Below, one piece after another: positions 3,200-37,598 of a stretch of DNA of 50,422 nt. A program made the position numbers and the translations under genes. Below the pieces are notes generated by a model, which saw only the letters and a program-made list of their open reading frames with translations, was not told the DNA's origin and searched no databases. The DNA is from Minisyncoccota bacterium (GTDB lineage Bacteria; Patescibacteriota; Minisyncoccia; Phycocordibacterales; UBA9973), in assembly GCA_043746875.1 (NCBI GenBank), contig JAYTQE010000046.1, positions 1 through 50,422 of the forward strand. The letters are read 5' to 3'. Position 1 is the first letter of the stretch. The number at the start of each line of letters is the position of its first letter.

Positions 3200-3306
3200 A
3201 TTTTTTAATTTAAATGTACATTTTAATCTCCTTTATAGTTGGTAGGAGTTTAACCGTTTTATTATTATAATACATATAATATATAAAAAGTCAATAAGCT
3301 TAAATG

Positions 3307-3380
3307 TCCGCCCTCATGGATTCGAACCATGGACCCCAGAGGTATAAGCTCTGTGCTCTAACCAACTGAGCTAAGGGCGG
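3307..3380 (-). tRNA. tRNA-Ile with anticodon UAU (reads AUA); no encoded CCA
   Basis: The reverse complement folds as a canonical 74-nt cloverleaf. Acceptor is CCGCCCT/AGGGCGG (7 bp), D arm GCTC-AGTTGGTTA-GAGC, anticodon stem CAGAG/CTCTG with loop C-T-TAT-A-C. Variable loop is GGGTC, T arm CATGG-TTCGAAT-CCATG, discriminator A. Confidence 0.8.
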
Positions 3381-29190: not shown

Positions 29191-29814
29191 CTAAAATCTA
29201 ACTCCTGTAATAAAACTAAATAAAACAAAAGCAAAAGGTGCTACAATTTTCCATCCAAAAACAATAAAAAGTAGCAAAAGAGGCAAACTATACTCCTCTA
29301 TAAAAGATAATTTCTTATAAAACCTAACTGGTAAAATTGCTGATAAAAAACGAAATCCGTCCAATGGAGCAATAGGAATTGCATTAAAAATTGCTAGCAC
29401 TATATTTACTAATACAACAATACTTGTGATTTCTATAAATTTTTCTGGTGTATTTCCAAGTAATATAGCAATCCTAATAGCTAATCCAAAAAAAATAGCA
29501 ATAAGTAAATTAACAATAATTCCAGCAATAGATACTTTTGCTACACTTTTATTTCCATTTCTTAAATTATCTGGATTATAAGGTACAGGTTTTGCCCAAC
29601 CAAATATAAATCCAGCATTTGTGATAAGTAAAATTAAAGGCAAGATAATAGAACCAAATATATCTATGTGTTTTAACGGATTAAGAGTAATACGCCCCAA
29701 AATACGAGCAGTAGAATCTCCTTCTTTTTCTGCCATAATTCCATGAGCTACCTCATGAACAATAATTGAAAAAATAAGTATAAAAAAATAAAAAATAGAA
29801 ATTGTTGCTGTCAT
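29191..29814 (-). CDS. M50-family (site-2 protease-like) membrane metallopeptidase
   Basis: HEVAHGIMA (HExxH) in TM1 and NAIPIAPLDGFR (NxxPxxxLDG) in a later TM segment; polytopic. Confidence 0.75.
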   Translation of the reverse strand: MTATISIFYFFILIFSIIVHEVAHGIMAEKEGDSTARILGRITLNPLKHIDIFGSIILPLILLITNAGFIFGWAKPVPYNPDNLRNGNKSVAKVSIAGIIVNLLIAIFFGLAIRIAILLGNTPEKFIEITSIVVLVNIVLAIFNAIPIAPLDGFRFLSAILPVRFYKKLSFIEEYSLPLLLLFIVFGWKIVAPFAFVLFSFITGVRF

Positions 29815-29948
29815 GTATAAAATATTATTATATATCAGCTTAGCATAACTAGAAAATACTTAATACTAAAGAGCTACTAGATTTTTAATTGATTAATAGT
29901 GTTTATGATATATAAGGTATTTTATATGAAAATTTATATATTTAGATA

Positions 29949-29977
29949 TTGCAAGATCAACCCTTGTATGTTACTAT
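29949..29977 (+). promoter_or_regulatory. Candidate rpmB promoter
   Basis: TTGCAA (29949-29954), 17-nt spacer, TACTAT (29972-29977). The ATG lies only 9 nt further. Confidence 0.5.
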
Positions 29978-29986
29978 CTCGTAACT

Positions 29987-30232
29987 ATGGCAAAAGAATG
30001 CGCAATAACTAAAAAATCGTCACAAATGGCTGGAGGTTACTCTACTAAAGTTCGTGCTACCAAGTTTAACCCGACAGGTATGACTCGAAAATATGCTAAC
30101 TTACAAAAAAAGCGTATTTTTGTTCCAGAACTAAACAAAACTCTAGTTATAACTATCTCAACTCGAGGAATGAAAAATATTCAAAAAAATGGAGCTTATA
30201 AGACGCTCAAAGAGGCTGGTTTAGTTAAATAG
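29987..30232 (+). CDS. rpmB: 50S ribosomal protein L28
   Basis: MAKECAITKK....G..........R...NLQ.KR; 81 aa. Confidence 0.85.
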   Translation: MAKECAITKKSSQMAGGYSTKVRATKFNPTGMTRKYANLQKKRIFVPELNKTLVITISTRGMKNIQKNGAYKTLKEAGLVK

Positions 30233-30243
30233 ATCTAGCAAAT

Positions 30244-30271
30244 AAAAAACACCTTGCGCAGGTGTTTTTTT
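30244..30271. terminator. Bidirectional terminator (rpmB / RT operon)
   Basis: acacct-tgcgc-aggtgt flanked by an A-run and a T-run. Confidence 0.8.
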
Positions 30272-30273
30272 AT

Positions 30274-31482
30274 TTACTTTACTATTTTATAGAAATGATC
30301 AAAAGTTTTTTGAAATTCATCTACTAAATAAGTATTATTTGTAAACAACGTATCTTCATCATTTCTATAAAAACCAGAAGCAGTCCAATTATTTGTTCCA
30401 AAAACAACAATTTTATTATCAACAATCATTACATGATGATGTAAAAAGATACTAAAATCAGATCTTTGTTTAGATTTATCTATCAAATTATCTAACTTTG
30501 TATCAAATAATATTTGTAAATTATCTATTTTTTGTTCAAATTTTATTTTTTCTAATTCACTAATAACTGAATTTTCTTTATAAGCGACAAAATCATCTAC
30601 TATTAAATTAATAGAGACTCCTGTTTTAGCTTTTTTAATTAAAATATTAGCAATATCTTTATCTGTAAATTGCCACATAAGTATATTAATATTATTTTTT
30701 GAAGAATCTATTATTTCAATAATTTTTTCTTTACTAGAATTCATATTTAGTCCTGGTGACATCCAAATATCTAGATAACTATCTGTATATTTAATATGCT
30801 TAAGCCATGGATTGTAAATTGGGTTTTTTAACTTTTTTGTTCCATAAAAATTATTTTTTAAAAAATCAAATTCTTTGACATAAGATTCTATAATATCAAC
30901 ATCTTTTGTTACTAAATAAAAACTTTGTTCATAAAGTTCACCTTTGTCTGTATAATTTATAGAACCTGTTATCATTTGTTGATTGTCTAGACCTTTATCA
31001 ATTATTAATAATTTATGATGCATATACTCTGCATTTTTATTATTTTGAGGATCAAAAAAGCCTGTATCTATCCGGACAATATCCTTAGGCAATTTTATAA
31101 AAAAAGCATCGTGTTTTAACTTACGAGAATAATCCAAAACCAGTGTAACCTTTACCCCTCTTTCTGATGCCCTATAAATAGCATCTCTTATTTTATAAGA
31201 ATAAAAAGAAAACATAACTATATCTATCGTTGACTTAGCACTATCTATCATCTCAACAATATTATTTAAATATTTTTTATCTTCAAGTTCATTATTAAAA
31301 AAAATCTTTGTATCCATTGGTGTATTTTTATAAACAACAACTTGTGGAGTAGCTACAGTAAACCTTAAGTTAAAATCAACTTCTTTGAGATACAGGTATG
31401 AAATATATTTAGTGATAAGTATAAAAAAAATACCTAATACAAAATATATTATTATATAATTATATTTTTTTAATATTTTCAT
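30274..31482 (-). CDS. Membrane-anchored phospholipase D superfamily protein with two HKD-type motifs (last gene of RT operon)
   Basis: N-terminal TM helix YIIIYFVLGIFFILI. Motif 1 is HHKLLIID...GSINYT (canonical HxKxxxxD...GSxN). Motif 2 is HHHVMIVD...GTNNWT (His at the Lys position). ATG 31482 is preferred (track TTG 31494) and overlaps the upstream gene by 23 nt. Confidence 0.75.
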   Translation of the reverse strand: MKILKKYNYIIIYFVLGIFFILITKYISYLYLKEVDFNLRFTVATPQVVVYKNTPMDTKIFFNNELEDKKYLNNIVEMIDSAKSTIDIVMFSFYSYKIRDAIYRASERGVKVTLVLDYSRKLKHDAFFIKLPKDIVRIDTGFFDPQNNKNAEYMHHKLLIIDKGLDNQQMITGSINYTDKGELYEQSFYLVTKDVDIIESYVKEFDFLKNNFYGTKKLKNPIYNPWLKHIKYTDSYLDIWMSPGLNMNSSKEKIIEIIDSSKNNINILMWQFTDKDIANILIKKAKTGVSINLIVDDFVAYKENSVISELEKIKFEQKIDNLQILFDTKLDNLIDKSKQRSDFSIFLHHHVMIVDNKIVVFGTNNWTASGFYRNDEDTLFTNNTYLVDEFQKTFDHFYKIVK

Positions 31483-33184
31483 TTTTGATTTCAAAAATAG
31501 AGGTGTAAGCTAATAAATTATTATTATTTCTTGCAAATAATATAATCGTAGAGTCTTTTAAATTTTTATCTAAATAAGATATCATTTCTTTTATTTCTTT
31601 ATAATTAATATCTATCCAGATATTATCTATAATAATAATACTTGGTTTATTCAATAAACAATAGGCTATCTGAGCAGTAAATAATAATGTTTGATTATCA
31701 ATCAATGTGTACAAATTTTCTCCTGAGAATTTTTTTCCGGATAAAAGAGGTTTAAGTAATGGGTATTGTTCTATAAGATTGACAATTTTATCTATATCTT
31801 GTGTATTTATATCTTCTTTGTCTTTATTAAGAATAATCTCTCCTATTGTTTTGCTCGATGAAAATTTTGGAACAAAAAAGTATTTGGACTGAAAGATATC
31901 AGACCAGTTATTATAGGTGAATCTAATTTTATCTATTTTGACCACCCAGCTATGTCTAGAGAAAAAACCATTACCTGAAAATAACCTTGCCAAAGAGGTT
32001 TTGCCTGCAAACTTTTCTCCAAAAAAAAGAATTCTCTCTTTTTTATTGAAATCTATAGATATTTTTTTGAAGTAATTCCCATGTTCATGAATCTTTACCT
32101 TATTTGATCTAAAAGATATTTTTCCCCAGTCTTTATTAAATGGTTCTAATTTTTTTATCCCATATTTAGGTATACAAGATCTTAATCCCAGTTTAAGTGG
32201 AATATAATAAAGTCCAACCCTAATGCTCAAATAGAAAATTCTAAGCATATATAAGTAAAAAAATCCTTTTAATAAAGATAAATTTTGAGATACTGCACTT
32301 ATATCTATTTTTTTATTTTTAGATAATAAGAAAAATATCGACAAAACAATAGCAAAAACAATAGTTGCGGCTCTACCAGAGAACCTCAACCAAACGTCTC
32401 TTCTTATTCTGAAGAAAGTATCAACATTTACTATGTTTTTAAGTTTCTCATTTATTTTTTTAAATTCTGAAAAATTTTTTAATGAATCAAAATCAAATAT
32501 AGATCTAGAAATGTGCTTAAAAATAGCAGAATAAGACGACACCTCTTTAGATATAAGATATTTTGATACTAAATAAGAAGCCATCATAAAAGCCAAACTT
32601 CCAAACAATATAATGGGAATATACAGTAGAAATTCTAAACCTAGAAATAAAGCAATAATGGTTAGAATAGAAAATGACAAAATAAAATATACAAAACCAA
32701 CGATAGAGTTATCAAGCCCCATTGATACAAGTGATAAACTATATGATATTTTAGTAAAAAAACCGGCCCTATTTTCATAATCTGCTTCTGCTATATTTTT
32801 ATCAAAAAATGTAGCAAATAAATCAGCTCTTAATTTATTAATGAATGTTAAAACTAGAAGTCTCTCATATTTAATAGATAAAAATAGTCCTCCTATATAA
32901 AAACATGCAATTGATAAAACTATCATAGGCATAGTCAATCTGTATCCTAGAATAAATAATAGGTAATCAGAAGATATATTTTTTATTGCAAAAAATAACG
33001 ATGCCTCAATTAATCCTTGAATAATTATAAAAAAAATAGCTAGACCGATAATCTTTTTAGTTTTTTTTATAAATCTTTTTATATAATCAATTCTTTTTTG
33101 TTTATCTGTATCAAAATCTTCAATTGATTGTTTTATTTCTATTCTTTTTTTATAAAGCAAAAATTGCTCTCTATCTTTATTCAT
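31460..33184 (-). CDS. ABC-exporter-like membrane protein with degenerate nucleotide-binding domain
   Basis: About six hydrophobic segments are followed by an NBD. Walker A is intact (GEKFAGKTS). The Q-loop Gln is absent, the signature LSGGQ position reads IDNQT, Walker B is IIIIDN (no catalytic Glu), and the H-loop position reads FARN. Confidence 0.7.
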   Translation of the reverse strand: MNKDREQFLLYKKRIEIKQSIEDFDTDKQKRIDYIKRFIKKTKKIIGLAIFFIIIQGLIEASLFFAIKNISSDYLLFILGYRLTMPMIVLSIACFYIGGLFLSIKYERLLVLTFINKLRADLFATFFDKNIAEADYENRAGFFTKISYSLSLVSMGLDNSIVGFVYFILSFSILTIIALFLGLEFLLYIPIILFGSLAFMMASYLVSKYLISKEVSSYSAIFKHISRSIFDFDSLKNFSEFKKINEKLKNIVNVDTFFRIRRDVWLRFSGRAATIVFAIVLSIFFLLSKNKKIDISAVSQNLSLLKGFFYLYMLRIFYLSIRVGLYYIPLKLGLRSCIPKYGIKKLEPFNKDWGKISFRSNKVKIHEHGNYFKKISIDFNKKERILFFGEKFAGKTSLARLFSGNGFFSRHSWVVKIDKIRFTYNNWSDIFQSKYFFVPKFSSSKTIGEIILNKDKEDINTQDIDKIVNLIEQYPLLKPLLSGKKFSGENLYTLIDNQTLLFTAQIAYCLLNKPSIIIIDNIWIDINYKEIKEMISYLDKNLKDSTIILFARNNNNLLAYTSIFEIKNENIKKI

Positions 33185-33192
33185 AACAATAC

Positions 33193-34404
33193 TTACTTTT
33201 TAAATTTTTTATTATAATGATTATATAATGAATCTATTTTATTATACCTAAATAATTTCTCTGTTTCTCTTCTATTTTTTTCTGAATATTTATCAAAAAA
33301 ATATTTAGTTATTATTCTATAAAATTTTTCAGAAAAATTTAATATTTGATTATCGTCATCTATTAATTTTTTTTGTTCTATAATTTGCTTAAACTGTATA
33401 AAAATACTATTATAATTACTTTCAAAATTAAGGCTAAAATGCTTCTTTTTTCTTAACTTATTACTACCTGGATATCTATATAATGTTTTTTTAAGAGAAC
33501 TTATAATTTTAATGAGAGAATTTTCATTTACGCCTATTTTATTATTTTTAAATCTATAACCTAAAAAAACAAAAGGTTCTTTATCTGATATAACCTTTAA
33601 TTTATTTTTATTAAGAATTAGTTTTTTTTCTTTTATCATTTTACTTAAGGTTTTTTGTAGACTCAAAATCTTATTTTTATCTTTATCAAAAGCAATCATA
33701 TCGTCTCCTACTCTCCGATAAAAATCAACATACTTCCCTGCTATTTTATCAAAATCATCCATAAATAAATTTGATAATAAGCCAGAGATAGGAGTTCCTG
33801 TCATTAAACCTTTATTGATTTTTATTAATTTACCATTTTCAAAATATGAAGATTTGATAAAAATTTCAATCAAATTTTTAGTTTTTTGATCTAAACAAAT
33901 TTTATCTAAACTAGATATAAGTAATTCATGATCAATAGAATCTGTATAATCTGAAAGGTCTGCTACCAATATGTGATTGGATCCATAAAACCTTTTATAC
34001 CTACGAATAACACTTCTAGATGCATAATAAGCTGGGTGAGACTTTCTGTATGAATACAAAAAATCAGATAAATATTCATCAAAAAATGGACTTACTACTC
34101 TATATATAGCCTCTGCTCTTATTCTATCTTTTATAGAAAAAATATATATGGATCTATATTTGCCAGTTTTTTTGGGAATCAAAATTTTAAATGGAGGATT
34201 AGTTGGTTTTAAGTTTTTTATTTCCTCTTCGACAATTTTTATTATTTCTTTTGAGGAATAATTTATATTGTTTATTGAAACACCGTCTACTCCTTGTAAT
34301 GTACTTGATTTAGATTCTTCATCAACCTTTTTTAAAAGTTCAAAATATGCACTGACTATGTTGTCATGATCTAGTATTTTATCAAAAAGGTTATTCTCTA
34401 GCAT
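33193..34404 (-). CDS. Reverse transcriptase (stand-alone RT domain plus ~100-aa helical C-terminus)
   Basis: The RT motif series is present in order: LIPKKTGKYRSIY (1), SIKDRIRAEAIY (2), SYRKSHPAYYA (3), ILVADLSDYTDSI (A), GLMTGTPISGLLSNLFM (B), YRRVGDDMIAF (C), LNKNKLKV (D), FVFLGYRF (E). Confidence 0.85.
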   Translation of the reverse strand: MLENNLFDKILDHDNIVSAYFELLKKVDEESKSSTLQGVDGVSINNINYSSKEIIKIVEEEIKNLKPTNPPFKILIPKKTGKYRSIYIFSIKDRIRAEAIYRVVSPFFDEYLSDFLYSYRKSHPAYYASRSVIRRYKRFYGSNHILVADLSDYTDSIDHELLISSLDKICLDQKTKNLIEIFIKSSYFENGKLIKINKGLMTGTPISGLLSNLFMDDFDKIAGKYVDFYRRVGDDMIAFDKDKNKILSLQKTLSKMIKEKKLILNKNKLKVISDKEPFVFLGYRFKNNKIGVNENSLIKIISSLKKTLYRYPGSNKLRKKKHFSLNFESNYNSIFIQFKQIIEQKKLIDDDNQILNFSEKFYRIITKYFFDKYSEKNRRETEKLFRYNKIDSLYNHYNKKFKK

Positions 34405-34411
34405 ATATACT

Positions 34412-34622
34412 TATAGTACGATCCGAGCATAATAGATACCAAGCGGCCTATTATAAATTGAATAAAATTTTCAGTCGGAAGCGATCCCCGCAAGGGGGTC
34501 GTGGAGGACTGATGCCTTTTAGATGAATTATTTCACCCAAATTGTTGGTATTAGGCAACTATAAAAATTTGGGCCCATAATTATTAATACTCACTTAAAA
34601 GTGTTTCTCTGATCGTACTATA
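34412..34622 (-). ncRNA. Candidate RT-associated structured ncRNA (retron msr/msd-like or DRT-type template RNA)
   Basis: Perfect 12-bp inverted repeat tatagtacgatc (34412-34423) / gatcgtactata (34611-34622) encloses 187 nt with hairpins at 34536-34573 and 34471-34512. It ends 7 nt before the RT ATG. A minus-strand TATAAT at 34647-34642 lies upstream. Stops occur in all frames. Confidence 0.5.
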
Positions 34623-34653
34623 AATATACAGCACTGTTTGATTATACTATATA

Positions 34654-35520
34654 TCAATTACTTTTATACCATTTTAGTCCGTCAGTATAAAATGAGGTTG
34701 TTCCTTTTTCTATTGTTGAAATTATGGGAATATTAAGAGATTTTAATCTTTCTATAATTTCTATATTTGGATGACCATAATTATTCTTGACTCCAGCTGA
34801 TATCAAAACTAAATTAGGAGATACACTTTTTAAAAATTCCAAACTAGATCCAGTTTTTGACCCATGATGTGAAAGCTTCAAAATATCAACATTTATTTTT
34901 TTAGGAAAATTATTAACTAGAAAATGCTCAATATTCGCTGGTGAGTCCCCAGTAAAAAGAGCTGATCTTTGGCCAATATCTAATCTTCCAACAATTGAAG
35001 CATTATTTGTCTCCCAGTTGTCTGTTGGTCTATTTGGGAAAATTATAGAAAACTTTGTAGGAACTGATGTCGAATTATTCAAGGTTAAATCCATACCACT
35101 TCTTGCATAATATGAAGGTATATTTTTTTTATTAAGATCAAAAAAAAGATTTTTAAAAGTCTCTGTATCTGTCGATACTTGTGATGTAAGAAATAATCCT
35201 ACCTCATAATGTTTAAGAACAGATTTTATACCTCCTATATGGTCTGCGTCTGGATGTGTTGCAATAATTACCTCTATAAATCTATCTCCTTTTGGCATAA
35301 CACTAGTAAGACCTGAAAGAACCTTTGAATCTTTACCTGCATCAATAAGTAATTGAACACCATTTGATGATTGAATTAAAAAACTATCACCCTGCCCTAC
35401 ATCAATCATAGAGAATCCAGAATTATTTTCATTTTTGCTAGATCCAAAAAATAAAAATACTAAAATTAGAATACTTAAAAATAAACTAAGTATAATCAAA
35501 TTTCTAATCTTTCTATCCAT
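34654..35520 (-). CDS. ComEC C-terminal-type metallo-beta-lactamase-fold protein with N-terminal membrane anchor
   Basis: IDVGQGDS, HPDADHIGG, LSHHGS, NNYGHP motifs are typical of the ComEC/Rec2 MBL domain. N-terminal TM helix LIILSLFLSILILVFLFF. Confidence 0.75.
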   Translation of the reverse strand: MDRKIRNLIILSLFLSILILVFLFFGSSKNENNSGFSMIDVGQGDSFLIQSSNGVQLLIDAGKDSKVLSGLTSVMPKGDRFIEVIIATHPDADHIGGIKSVLKHYEVGLFLTSQVSTDTETFKNLFFDLNKKNIPSYYARSGMDLTLNNSTSVPTKFSIIFPNRPTDNWETNNASIVGRLDIGQRSALFTGDSPANIEHFLVNNFPKKINVDILKLSHHGSKTGSSLEFLKSVSPNLVLISAGVKNNYGHPNIEIIERLKSLNIPIISTIEKGTTSFYTDGLKWYKSN

Positions 35521-35566
35521 AAATAAATTTTATACTAAATTAATAATAAATCAGATCTTATAAAGA

Positions 35567-35575
35567 TGCTATAAT
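35567..35575 (+). promoter_or_regulatory. Extended -10 box (TGcTATAAT) 6 nt upstream of the sod ATG
   Basis: Direct reading; implies a leaderless or near-leaderless mRNA. Confidence 0.45.
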
Positions 35576-35581
35576 GAAAAC

Positions 35582-36175
35582 ATGTTTACAGAACAAAAAT
35601 TTGAAATACCGAAACTTGTCGGTATAAGTGAGAAAACAATAGAAGAACACTTGAAGTTATATGCTGGTTATATAAAAAATGCGAACATGATTCTTGAATT
35701 ACTAGAAAAAGGATCGTGGGAAGGTGAAGGTGGTATCTATGCGAGAAACGAATTAAATCGTCGTTTTAGTTTCGAATACAATGGTATGCGCAACCATGAA
35801 ATTTATTTTTCTTCTTTAGAAGAAGGACCTAAAGATCTCAATCCAGAAAGTGAATTAGGTAAAACATTACTAGGACTTTTTGGTAATTATGAAAACTTTG
35901 TACAAAAATTTACGAGCATAGCTCTTACTCGTGGAATTGGATGGGCAATATTATGGTATGATAAAAAAAATAACAAAATACTTACTTCTTGGATAGATGA
36001 ACAACACTTAGGTCAATTAAATGGTTGCAAAATGATACTCGCACTTGATATGTGGGAACATTCATTTGTGGCTGATTACCAATCAAGCGGTAAAAAAGTA
36101 TATGTTGAAGATTTTTTCAAAAATTTGAATTGGTCTGTATGCGAAAAGTATTTCTCAGATGCGCAAAATAAGTAA
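35582..36175 (+). CDS. Fe/Mn superoxide dismutase family protein (divergent)
   Basis: Ligand contexts are conserved: EEHLKLYAGYIKNAN, NGMRNHEIYF, DMWEHSF. Confidence 0.7.
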   Translation: MFTEQKFEIPKLVGISEKTIEEHLKLYAGYIKNANMILELLEKGSWEGEGGIYARNELNRRFSFEYNGMRNHEIYFSSLEEGPKDLNPESELGKTLLGLFGNYENFVQKFTSIALTRGIGWAILWYDKKNNKILTSWIDEQHLGQLNGCKMILALDMWEHSFVADYQSSGKKVYVEDFFKNLNWSVCEKYFSDAQNK

Positions 36176-37598
36176 TAATTTCTCTTTTATAAATTAGTAC
36201 AAATAACACACTGTAGATACCTAGGACCCCGAATCCACTCAGATTCGGAGTTTGCCATTGGGGTAATTTCCCAAAAAATGTCAGAACATTGATTGTGAAA
36301 CCTCCAACAAATGATGTTAGTGTTCCAAAAAAATTAGTTAAAAGTGTTATAGGTGAAAATACTACAACAGCAAGTCCTCCCAACATAAGTAATGGAATTA
36401 TTGGAACTAAGAACATATTTGCAATAGGTGAAACGATTGGAAACAATCCTGAGAAATACATCAAGTATGGCAACATAAATATTGGTAGACCGAAAGATAA
36501 AATACTTAGCTCACGAAAGTTAACCTTCCAATTTGGAATCCAAATTAATTTCTCTTTGAGAATTGGAAGTATAGTGATAATGAACAATGTTGCTAGAAAT
36601 GATAGATGAAATCCTGGATCGCTAAATATTGCCTTTGGCATTGTCATAAAGAAAAATAAAAATGCGAACAATAATGCTCGGAAAACATTATAAGTACGGA
36701 GAGTTGCTGTAGCTAGAAGTGCAATAGAACCCATTATTCCTGCTCTAACTGCTGCTATACCTGCACCACTAACAAGTACTAATGAAAATATCCCAAAAAA
36801 TATCAAAATGTTACGTACCTTAAATTGTGCTCTGCGCAAAAGTATCCCGATAAATGTCGCTAAGACTGTGATGTTGTAGCCAGAGAGTACTAGGGTGTGA
36901 AGTGTACCTGTTACTCTGAAAATATCTGACAAATATTTTGGAATACCTCCTTGAAAGCCAACCAACATACCACTAACTATTCCATCAACTGGGAAAGATA
37001 TATTTTTCGACAATTGTCTTGCAATCCATGAGCGAGTAATAGTGGCATATCTAACAACATAATTCCTAATCTCACCATTCTTTAGGCCTTGCCTAAAGAA
37101 TTCAATATTTGCTATTTGAGCATTGTTTACTATAGCGTCTATACCTTTACTACTTAAATATTGTTTATATGGAAATATTCTACCCGAATCAGTTACAAAG
37201 TTTTCTGGCTCTTTTACTTGTCCGCGAAATGATATATAGTCTCCCGGTAATATATTGTTAATATGAGATAATTCAACCTGGACTTTACCATCAGAATTAT
37301 CTAATTTAACTATAAGTAATGTCTTATCTAATCTTTCATCTATACTTTGAACTATACCGCTAAGTGCTCTATTGCCTATTTCTATTTCATGAACAGGCAT
37401 CATCCATATTCTTAAAGCTCCAAGTATTACTGTTAATGTTAAAATTAAACCTATTAATATTCCTTTGAAGTTTCTAAAAATTAAACAAAAAAATACTCCC
37501 CAAAGAATACTCAAAAAATAAATTTCAGTAAGACTAAAGTTTAACTGATAATAAAATGTTGAACCTATAATCAAGCTAATACAAAACAGTACGAGCAT
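36117..37598 (-). CDS. comEC: ComEC/Rec2 membrane channel part (DUF4131-like OB region plus competence domain), no MBL domain
   Basis: 493 aa, polytopic. A soluble insert follows the first TM segments, then a dense TM bundle typical of the ComEC competence domain. Confidence 0.7.
   Translation of the reverse strand: MLVLFCISLIIGSTFYYQLNFSLTEIYFLSILWGVFFCLIFRNFKGILIGLILTLTVILGALRIWMMPVHEIEIGNRALSGIVQSIDERLDKTLLIVKLDNSDGKVQVELSHINNILPGDYISFRGQVKEPENFVTDSGRIFPYKQYLSSKGIDAIVNNAQIANIEFFRQGLKNGEIRNYVVRYATITRSWIARQLSKNISFPVDGIVSGMLVGFQGGIPKYLSDIFRVTGTLHTLVLSGYNITVLATFIGILLRRAQFKVRNILIFFGIFSLVLVSGAGIAAVRAGIMGSIALLATATLRTYNVFRALLFAFLFFFMTMPKAIFSDPGFHLSFLATLFIITILPILKEKLIWIPNWKVNFRELSILSFGLPIFMLPYLMYFSGLFPIVSPIANMFLVPIIPLLMLGGLAVVVFSPITLLTNFFGTLTSFVGGFTINVLTFFGKLPQWQTPNLSGFGVLGIYSVLFVLIYKREIITYFAHLRNTFRIQTNSNF

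Follow-up and report, generated by a model that had tools for sequence, protein, structure and literature searches.

Between the rpmB terminator and a ComEC-type metallo-beta-lactamase (MBL) gene of a Minisyncoccota bacterium, we identified four minus-strand elements that form one inherited unit: a structured non-coding RNA (ncRNA), a reverse transcriptase (RT), a protein resembling ATP-binding cassette (ABC) exporters, hereafter the ABC-like protein, and a protein of the phospholipase D (PLD) superfamily. They lie in a window of 50,422 nucleotides (the whole stretch of DNA analysed, positions 1 to 50,422 of contig JAYTQE010000046.1, GenBank assembly GCA_043746875.1) and run from a 249-nt non-coding stretch (34405-34653) down to position 30274, giving a module of ~4.4 kb. 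The four parts were recovered together from more than 130 genomes and metagenome contigs, mostly of tiny Patescibacteria. An original prediction, made from the letters of the window, had proposed at this place an undescribed RT-based system of the retron or defence-associated reverse transcriptase (DRT) kind; that the unit is conserved and undescribed is supported, and PADLOC, NCBIfam, Pfam and Rfam place it in no described system. RT surveys and reviews, in a search that left many subscription papers outside, mention neither ABC transporters nor PLD proteins as partners. Within that scope, novelty lies in the RT lineage, the RNA and the effector pair; the logic of combining an RT, an RNA and effectors is already known.

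A scan based on the RT, with one genome retained per species, yielded 74 loci, of which 70 have the ABC-like gene adjacent and 67 the PLD gene; loci without one or the other are mostly at or near a contig end. Both genes are nearly always located downstream of the RT gene on the same strand, with ends overlapping or almost abutting. The ABC-like protein being of low complexity, a word-indexed search for its homologues gave 2 members, and metagenome loci were used in its place. Among 59 metagenome loci found via the ABC-like gene, the RT was adjacent in 57 (the other two begin at a contig edge) and the PLD gene was present in 51, loci without it stopping within or shortly after the ABC-like gene. 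The trio is kept in other orientations in four distant loci (divergent in L055, L068 and L074, convergent in L070), and all-against-all clustering of the neighbouring genes returned no further gene common to the loci. Pairwise distances of the RT, ABC-like and PLD proteins correlate with r = 0.91-0.94, a level attained in 0 of 500 permutations. The proposal that RT homologues would keep these two neighbours together with the upstream repeat thus held in both search directions, and the RNA shows abundant compensatory change.

The hosts belong mostly to Patescibacteria lineages, with a few others, and the G+C content of the loci ranges from 0.22 to 0.62. At the upper end, a complete module with a G+C-rich RNA is located on a 2.96-Mb contig of Longimicrobiales (L023, CBDFMQ010000002.1, locus G+C 0.62), and its presence in this large non-Patescibacteria genome indicates horizontal transfer across phyla. 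In 38 of 43 loci, the flanks exceed the module in G+C. More than one module was found in six genomes, which hold two or three each; the RTs of such copies share 37-64% identity and their partners are equally divergent, which identifies them as old paralogues or separate acquisitions and not as recent transpositions. A single contig of the viral collection (L075, IMGVR_UViG_3300001866_000229) carries the RT and the RNA and ends inside the module. The RT family is small, with 45 clusters (50% identity) at E <= 1e-30 among 1.84 billion representatives, and its boundary is sharp, scores falling from 147 to 123 bits.

The RNA occupies 34406-34628 on the minus strand (~223 nt between the ends of its closing stem) and was delineated by its fold, by a covariance model and by covariation. 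It is closed by an inverted repeat, helix P1, whose perfect 12-bp core (34611-34622 with 34412-34423) ends 7 nt before the ATG of the RT, as had been read from the sequence at the outset, and extends to arms of 22 nt with 91% complementarity (5' arm 34607-34628, 3' arm 34406-34427, the latter ending 1 nt before the RT start codon). For the 249-nt intergenic RNA a folding energy of -73.7 kcal/mol was computed, compared with -47.3 +/- 4.2 kcal/mol for shuffled sequences (z = -6.3, 0 of 200 shuffles as good). Within P1, a conserved A-rich linker (consensus aaaAaC) leads to a small hairpin, P2 (34592-34603), which lies outside the covariance model R1 described below, occurs in most relatives with differing sequence and is reduced in L001, L002 and L005. 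It is followed by the strand GUAUUA (34585-34590), which forms a pseudoknot with UAAUAC (34548-34553) in the loop of a hairpin at 34544-34559, and by the stems P3 and P4 around this hairpin (34526-34582, helices 3-5). The interval 34455-34525 holds a variable region, which forms a G+C-rich hairpin in the window and differs in length and sequence between loci and between tandem copies, and then a conserved single-stranded motif of the type CUCnUUGnAUUUAAUUA just 5' of P6. The 3' hairpin P6 (34429-34454, helix 6) carries the conserved loop GCCGYUUGG. Conservation of unpaired positions is seen in the A-rich linker after P1, in AAU before P3 and in ~18 nt before P6.

At least ~245 nt of non-coding DNA lie upstream of the RT in nearly every locus, and nearly all loci have there a long stem of unrelated sequence (P1 of 12-30 bp, spans of 166-330 nt). 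A seed alignment of nine sequences supports P1, the nested P3/P4, the hairpin, P6 and the pseudoknot: 91% of cells are paired (32-45% when the partners are shifted), compensatory change is seen in 39 of 48 pairs, and the pseudoknot is paired in 98.1% of cells. The covariance model R1, built without the pseudoknot, matched the window at 34413-34621 with 169 bits. Its matches, 46 in the set made up of the window and the 74 genome loci and 39 in a further set of 60 loci, all lie on the RT strand and upstream of the RT, with none elsewhere. In the 46-sequence alignment 92.8% of cells are paired (29-45% with shifted partners) and 45 of 46 pairs have changes on both sides; compensatory change was found in 14/14 pairs of helix 1 (P1, 94.4% of cells paired), 15/16 pairs of helices 3-5 (80-95% paired) and 10/10 pairs of helix 6 (94.3% paired). 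The cleanest evidence comes from the pseudoknot helix, because the alignment was not fitted to it: 98.7% of its cells are paired and 6/6 pairs covary among 45 distinct sequences. Using a sequence profile (nhmmer), we recovered the RNA in 99 of 135 sources; those without a match are contig-truncated or belong to divergent sublineages, five of which were folded and share the same plan. Rfam, searched over 29800-35800 at E <= 1, returned no match to the RNA and only a chance small-RNA match at the rpmB terminator. A genuine RNA family, with a pseudoknot, occupies the upstream stretch.

Two tandem copies of the RNA precede a single RT in at least eight loci (L003:6566-6972, L011:2558-3303, L016:928-1500, L034:6526-6998, L061:6648-6999, L073:6397-6976, L092:1654-2226 and L115:3097-3676), the copies having a common core and differing in closing stem and variable region. 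Several loci have a terminator-like hairpin between RNA and RT, and in L050 (4813-7004) a strong hairpin of this kind and two type IV pilin-like genes separate them, the RNA there having the look of an independent transcription unit. Where the loci are divergent, the long-stem RNA keeps its place by the RT and not by the ABC/PLD pair. The tandem copies, the terminator-like hairpins and the separation in L050 favour a discrete RNA over a simple leader. The single transcript envisaged in the original prediction is plausible for the three genes of the window; in several relatives, however, the terminator-like hairpin after the RNA makes the latter look like a unit of its own. A TATAAT box at 34641-34646 (minus strand), ~12 nt upstream of the extended closing stem, and the extended -10 element TGCTATAAT at a similar distance upstream of P1 in L014 and L017 suggest that transcription starts just before P1. 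A promoter scan gave 35 sites against 43 expected and is uninformative in DNA this rich in AT. At the far end of the module, a terminator hairpin at 30244-30270 is bordered by A-runs at one end and by T-runs at the other, so that it can serve both rpmB (plus strand) and the PLD gene (minus strand). All coordinates first given for the four co-oriented elements were confirmed, as was the AT-richness of the block (24.2% G+C, against 31.0% for the remainder of the window).

The RT (33193-34404, minus strand, 403 aa, ATG at 34404) had been recognized by its motifs and matches Pfam RVT_1 over the entire profile (1-205/205, E = 3e-23). D149, Y153 and G233-D234-D235 are invariant among 54 relatives, and the active-site box reads RVGDD in place of RYADD; by analogy with other RTs, Y153 would stand at the expected position of the sugar-selecting residue. 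We placed the lineage by profile scores and structure superposition. The best NCBIfam model is that of group II intron RTs (TIGR04416), whose cut-off is missed (145 bits against 300), and the RT also falls below those of Drt3a (55 bits against 200), Drt2 (52 against 390) and retron_St85_RT (48.7 against 235). PADLOC gave as top models a generic RT (144 bits) and RT_UG26 (132 bits, RT core only, 39-313 of 398), together with a UG17 model that covers nearly the whole RT (22-382) at 100 bits, the retron RT models attaining only E ~1e-11. When compared with solved RTs, the profile of the 54 relatives scored best against GsI-IIC (129 bits) and then RT-Cas1 (115 bits), followed at lower scores by DRT9 (68.6 bits), DRT2 (51), G2L4 (41), retron Ec86 (35) and telomerase (24). 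Superposition of the AlphaFold model (pLDDT 89.6) with Foldseek gave TM scores of 0.80 for GsI-IIC, 0.73 for G2L4 and 0.65 for DRT9, and no GIIM (maturase) domain is on record for the 54 family members. From the profile scores, the superposition of the model and the invariant catalytic residues, the RT is taken to be an active, catalytically intact and free-standing enzyme of the group II-intron-like kind. The unit is RT-based as the original prediction had it; the retron- or DRT-like placement of the enzyme gives way to a group II-intron-like lineage that is neither retron nor UG/Abi.

The ABC-like gene (31460-33184, minus strand, 574 aa) begins 8 nt past the RT stop codon. Its match to Pfam ABC_tran is weak (E = 1e-3, 20.1 bits, cut-off 25). 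With the family profile, the type IV exporters Pgp, ABCB4, MsbA, TM287/288 and PCAT1 score 50-73 bits, the matches covering the membrane half as well as the nucleotide-binding half, and Foldseek aligns the low-confidence model (pLDDT 62) over its full length to half-transporters with TM scores of 0.55-0.63. The protein has the exporter architecture of a six-helix transmembrane domain and a nucleotide-binding domain, with an incomplete set of catalytic motifs: the family conserves Walker A (GxxxxGKT), a Walker B of the form hhhhD-N (not D-E) and the D-loop aspartate, and its alignment contains neither an LSGGQ signature motif nor an H-loop histidine. It had been described as exporter-like and keeping only Walker A; the likeness and the degeneracy stand, and the aspartates of Walker B and of the D-loop have to be added to what is kept. 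As the catalytic glutamate, the signature motif and the H-loop histidine are missing in a single gene, a homodimer would have no competent site. The ABC-like protein is a dedicated exporter-fold membrane protein, with an ATPase site that probably can bind nucleotide and not hydrolyse it.

The PLD gene (30274-31482, minus strand) encodes 402 aa from an ATG at 31482, overlaps the ABC-like gene by 23 nt and has one hydrophobic helix, so the single-pass protein of the original prediction is confirmed from that start; the longest ORF opens at a TTG at 31494 and has 406 aa. Two PLDc_2 domains were detected (E = 1e-39), and the best solved relatives of the family profile are the nucleases NucT (92.8 bits), Zucchini/MitoPLD (71-74 bits) and Nuc (61.6 bits). 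Motif 1 is canonical (H159-x-K161-x4-D166), and motif 2 reads H352-x-H354-x4-D359 followed by GTNN, the form HxH...D, with H for K, being found in every member. Judging from these motifs and profile matches, the protein is a membrane-anchored tandem-domain member of the nuclease branch (NucT/Zucchini/Nuc type). All 64 members have one N-terminal helix, which is preceded by more lysine and arginine residues than follow it (4.9 against 2.2, a bias seen in 53 of the 64 members), although over-long ORF calls could inflate this difference. Under the positive-inside rule, this enrichment places the catalytic domains probably outside the cell.

Outside the family, the closest RTs (24-27% identity, 472-503 aa) adjoin an ABC exporter in all five informative loci, in convergent or divergent orientation, and one of these loci adds a PLDc_2 protein (L136:1410-4644, L137:3228-6450, L138:3706-8508, L139:2436-6345 and L140:686-4075). 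These sister exporters have an intact Walker A, the signature-like FSRGELQK, the Walker B motif DEPT and the H-loop SHR, and reach 110-144 bits when scored with the profile of the Patescibacteria ABC-like proteins, on which ordinary exporters score at most 66 bits; they are specific relatives of the ABC-like family of the window. The box R[YF]GDD is found in 6 of 7 sister RTs checked and RYADD in one (P0059). Regions upstream of the sister RTs fold strongly, model R1 has no match on the sister loci, and the hosts have 50-59% G+C. A sister family with intact exporters suggests, from these five loci, that the RT-ABC partnership is older and wider than the Patescibacteria module.

Among described RT systems, DRT10 combines its RT with an ncRNA and with SLATT, a membrane protein (PMC12632851). 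The module resembles DRT10 and DRT9 in having an RT with an ncRNA closed by a long basal stem enclosing smaller stem-loops, and DRT10 in the obligatory membrane effector, which is SLATT in that system (PMC12632851). The alignment of the UG17 model along nearly the whole RT adds to the likeness to DRT10, as do the DRT9 structures among the best Foldseek matches to that with DRT9. The module RT is nevertheless nearer to group II intron RTs than to UG/Abi RTs: RT_UG26 scores below the generic RT model, group II RTs score above DRT9 and DRT2, and UG26 was described with a Vsr-like endonuclease, not with ABC or PLD proteins. The module RNA differs from those of DRT9 and DRT10 in being longer, pseudoknotted and without an Rfam or DRT match, and from that of DRT10 in lacking the A-B-A' template pattern; the partners are an ABC-exporter-fold protein and a PLD instead of SLATT, in the order RNA-RT-effectors.

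Retron Ec48 uses a membrane effector, and type I-A retrons combine an RT with PtuA, an ABC-type ATPase, and the nuclease PtuB. The module shares with retrons, in shape only, an inverted-repeat-closed RNA directly upstream of the RT, and effector genes in the same operon; its pairing of an ABC-superfamily ATPase with a nuclease recalls PtuAB. It departs from retrons in its low scores with retron RTs (St85 and Ec86, above) and in having no conserved branching G after the 5' stem arm, where the consensus is the A-rich linker, and from type I-A retrons in an ABC protein that is a transmembrane exporter type, not a soluble SMC-like ATPase, and a nuclease that is PLD, not HNH. The best matches of the RT, in score and in superposition, remain the group II intron RTs and G2L4 named above, and like G2L RTs it is free-standing, without intron RNA, and has a variant of YADD (YIDD in G2L4). 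It differs from group II intron RTs in its score below the intron threshold, in the missing GIIM record and in its VGDD site, and from these and G2L4 alike in having an RNA of its own that is not an intron and fixed membrane partners. Group II intron domains I-VI gave no Rfam match at E <= 1 in 29800-35800, the space upstream is ~223 nt and a gene lies directly downstream. Two further candidates were rejected. For a diversity-generating retroelement, there are no template/variable-type (TR/VR) repeats, as no direct repeats of at least 35 nt occur in the window except one AT-rich pair at 38.3 kb, and locus clustering gave no Avd-like conserved neighbour; for a CRISPR-associated RT, no cas family is among those listed for the 122 immediate neighbours, and RT-Cas1 matches the RT domain only.

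The effectors have known counterparts of their own. With the Nuc, NucT and Zucchini nucleases, DrmC and DpdK, which give its best profile matches, the PLD protein shares the HKD fold; it differs from all of them in carrying two domains in one chain behind a membrane anchor and in the second motif, HxH...D in every module PLD where they have HxK...D. The ABC-like protein is, like the subunits of the type IV exporters TM287/288, TmrAB and BmrCD, a half-transporter, in which six long helices precede a C-terminal nucleotide-binding domain; in those exporters one of two sites is degenerate, whereas the module protein is without catalytic glutamate, signature and H-loop histidine.

We ranked the explanations for the module in the order conflict or defence, surface nucleic-acid handling and cis-regulatory RNA, a mobile element being nearly excluded. 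Conflict or defence comes first because of the rarity of the module, its horizontal spread, its paralogues and the precedents: on the plan of retrons and DRTs, an RT-RNA sensor would be coupled to a membrane effector in a patchy, horizontally spread system, an analogy that we favour tentatively and stop short of calling probable. In such a system, the RNA would be transcribed from its own start just upstream of P1 and bound by the RT, as retron, DRT2, DRT9, DRT10 and group II intron RTs bind theirs, and part of it would be copied into DNA. The resulting RT-RNA-DNA particle would hold or switch the ABC-like/PLD membrane complex via the cytoplasmic nucleotide-binding domain; this complex would act at the envelope as a gated channel or flippase, and the PLD would cut nucleic acid or phospholipid on the outer face.

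Several results weigh against a defence system. The defence role of the original prediction is an argument by analogy, to which the surroundings lend no support: the 122 immediate neighbours show no defence enrichment, their PADLOC matches being limited to generic MBL and helicase models, and their commonest Pfam families are pilin N-termini and ComEC-type MBL. The module is essentially absent from viral contigs (one locus in 2.9 million of IMG/VR), membrane ABC exporters are to our knowledge not known as defence effectors, and the predicted outward topology would be an odd one for an abortive-infection nuclease. Nor did three kinds of search on the RNA (A-B-A' repeats, stop-free frames, target matches) identify a template for the RT. 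A DRT10-type template was rejected, as A-B-A' repeats in the 37 nt around the start of P6 are no longer than in shuffles (median p = 0.58, none <= 0.05); so was an ORF of the DRT2/neo type, the longest stop-free run being 42 codons, and a guide or target role of the variable region, which has only chance 8-11-mers in common with the rest of the 50-kb window.

An alternative, for which the predicted outward position of the PLD domains speaks, is a module for the uptake, export or processing of nucleic acid at the surface of episymbiotic Patescibacteria, in which an outward NucT-like nuclease and the ABC-fold protein would work with pili and ComEC, and the RT-RNA particle would make or prime DNA passed to them or regulating them. 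NucT, the closest relative of the PLD and a nuclease associated with membranes, has been connected with natural transformation in Helicobacter. Of the 74 loci, 18 have type IV pilin-like genes at a distance of at most 7 kb, and among the 122 immediate neighbours pilin-type proteins are the most frequent (8). The module adjoins a ComEC-type MBL gene in the window and, with that gene in a different orientation, in five further loci; two pilin genes stand between RNA and RT in L050, and the exporters of the sister family appear from their motifs to be active. However, pilins and ComEC are common in these genomes and many loci are related, so enrichment is not established; the proximity of MBL and pilin genes may reflect chance or shared ancestry of the loci, yet it fits a role at the surface. 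Neighbours also vary widely between loci, the rarity of the module ill suits a core uptake function, and we know of no uptake or export system that uses an RT. We regard this explanation as doubtful, though it comes next after defence. A bolder extension, which we consider a long shot, is that RTs with an xGDD box form a clade that co-evolved, in more than one phylum, with ABC exporters dedicated to them, the product of the RT (RNA-templated DNA or a particle) being their ligand or cargo; equally conjectural is its companion claim that exporters in this clade are intact in GC-rich bacteria and hydrolysis-dead in Patescibacteria. If true, the module would belong to the first RT system with an output that is handed over or read out at the cell envelope and processed there by a nuclease facing outward, and would not be a cytoplasmic abortive-infection switch.

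That the RNA acts mainly in cis, as an RT-binding control of translation like group II domain IVa or as a ligand-sensing operon leader, with the RT working without a dedicated template (for instance in DNA repair, like G2L4), is less probable again. The 3' arm of P1 comes to within 1-25 nt of the RT start and in many loci contains a purine-rich Shine-Dalgarno-like run such as UUGGGGGUGA, the terminator-like hairpin following the RNA in some loci recalls riboswitch leaders, and the RT is structurally near group II RTs and G2L4. Against this, P1 is far longer than the switching helices of riboswitches, tandem RNAs precede one RT, a strong terminator and two genes intervene between RNA and RT in L050, the long-stem RNA of divergent loci does not go with the transporter genes, and the strict ABC/PLD partnership would be left unexplained. 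A mobile retroelement or a decayed group II intron with passenger neighbours would agree with the group II-like RT and with the genomes that hold two or three copies, but is already largely refuted and very improbable: the Rfam search found no intron RNA domains, the RNA upstream could not accommodate domains I-III and the RT is directly followed by the ABC-like gene, the copies within a genome are too divergent for recent transpositions, no GIIM domain is on record for the family, TR/VR-type repeats are missing, and the ABC-like and PLD proteins co-evolve with the RT.

The ComEC-type gene that abuts the module in the window encodes a membrane-anchored MBL protein (34654-35520, same strand); its divergent counterparts are located at L039:5852-6715, L049:5830-6717, L063:5647-6513, L064:5247-6134 and L066:5813-6700. 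ComEC is split in the window (34654-37598), the MBL domain and the competence/membrane domain (36117-37598, minus strand) being separate ORFs. In the interval between them is a superoxide dismutase gene (35582-36175, plus strand), which shares 59 nt with the end of the second. The sole tRNA gene of the window is a tRNA-Ile with anticodon TAT (3306-3380), an uncommon bacterial way of reading AUA.

Systems that join an RT to an RNA (retrons, DRT2, DRT9, DRT10) have each revealed an unexpected form of DNA synthesis, and some became genome-engineering tools. To these the module adds an RT of a lineage that is neither retron nor UG/Abi, a new family of RNAs with a pseudoknot, and effectors without precedent among the described RT systems compared here. 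Its parts are small and sharply bounded, which makes its DNA product and the role of the membrane pair directly testable by heterologous expression. Its Patescibacteria hosts have very small genomes, and yet they sometimes maintain two or three divergent copies of it.

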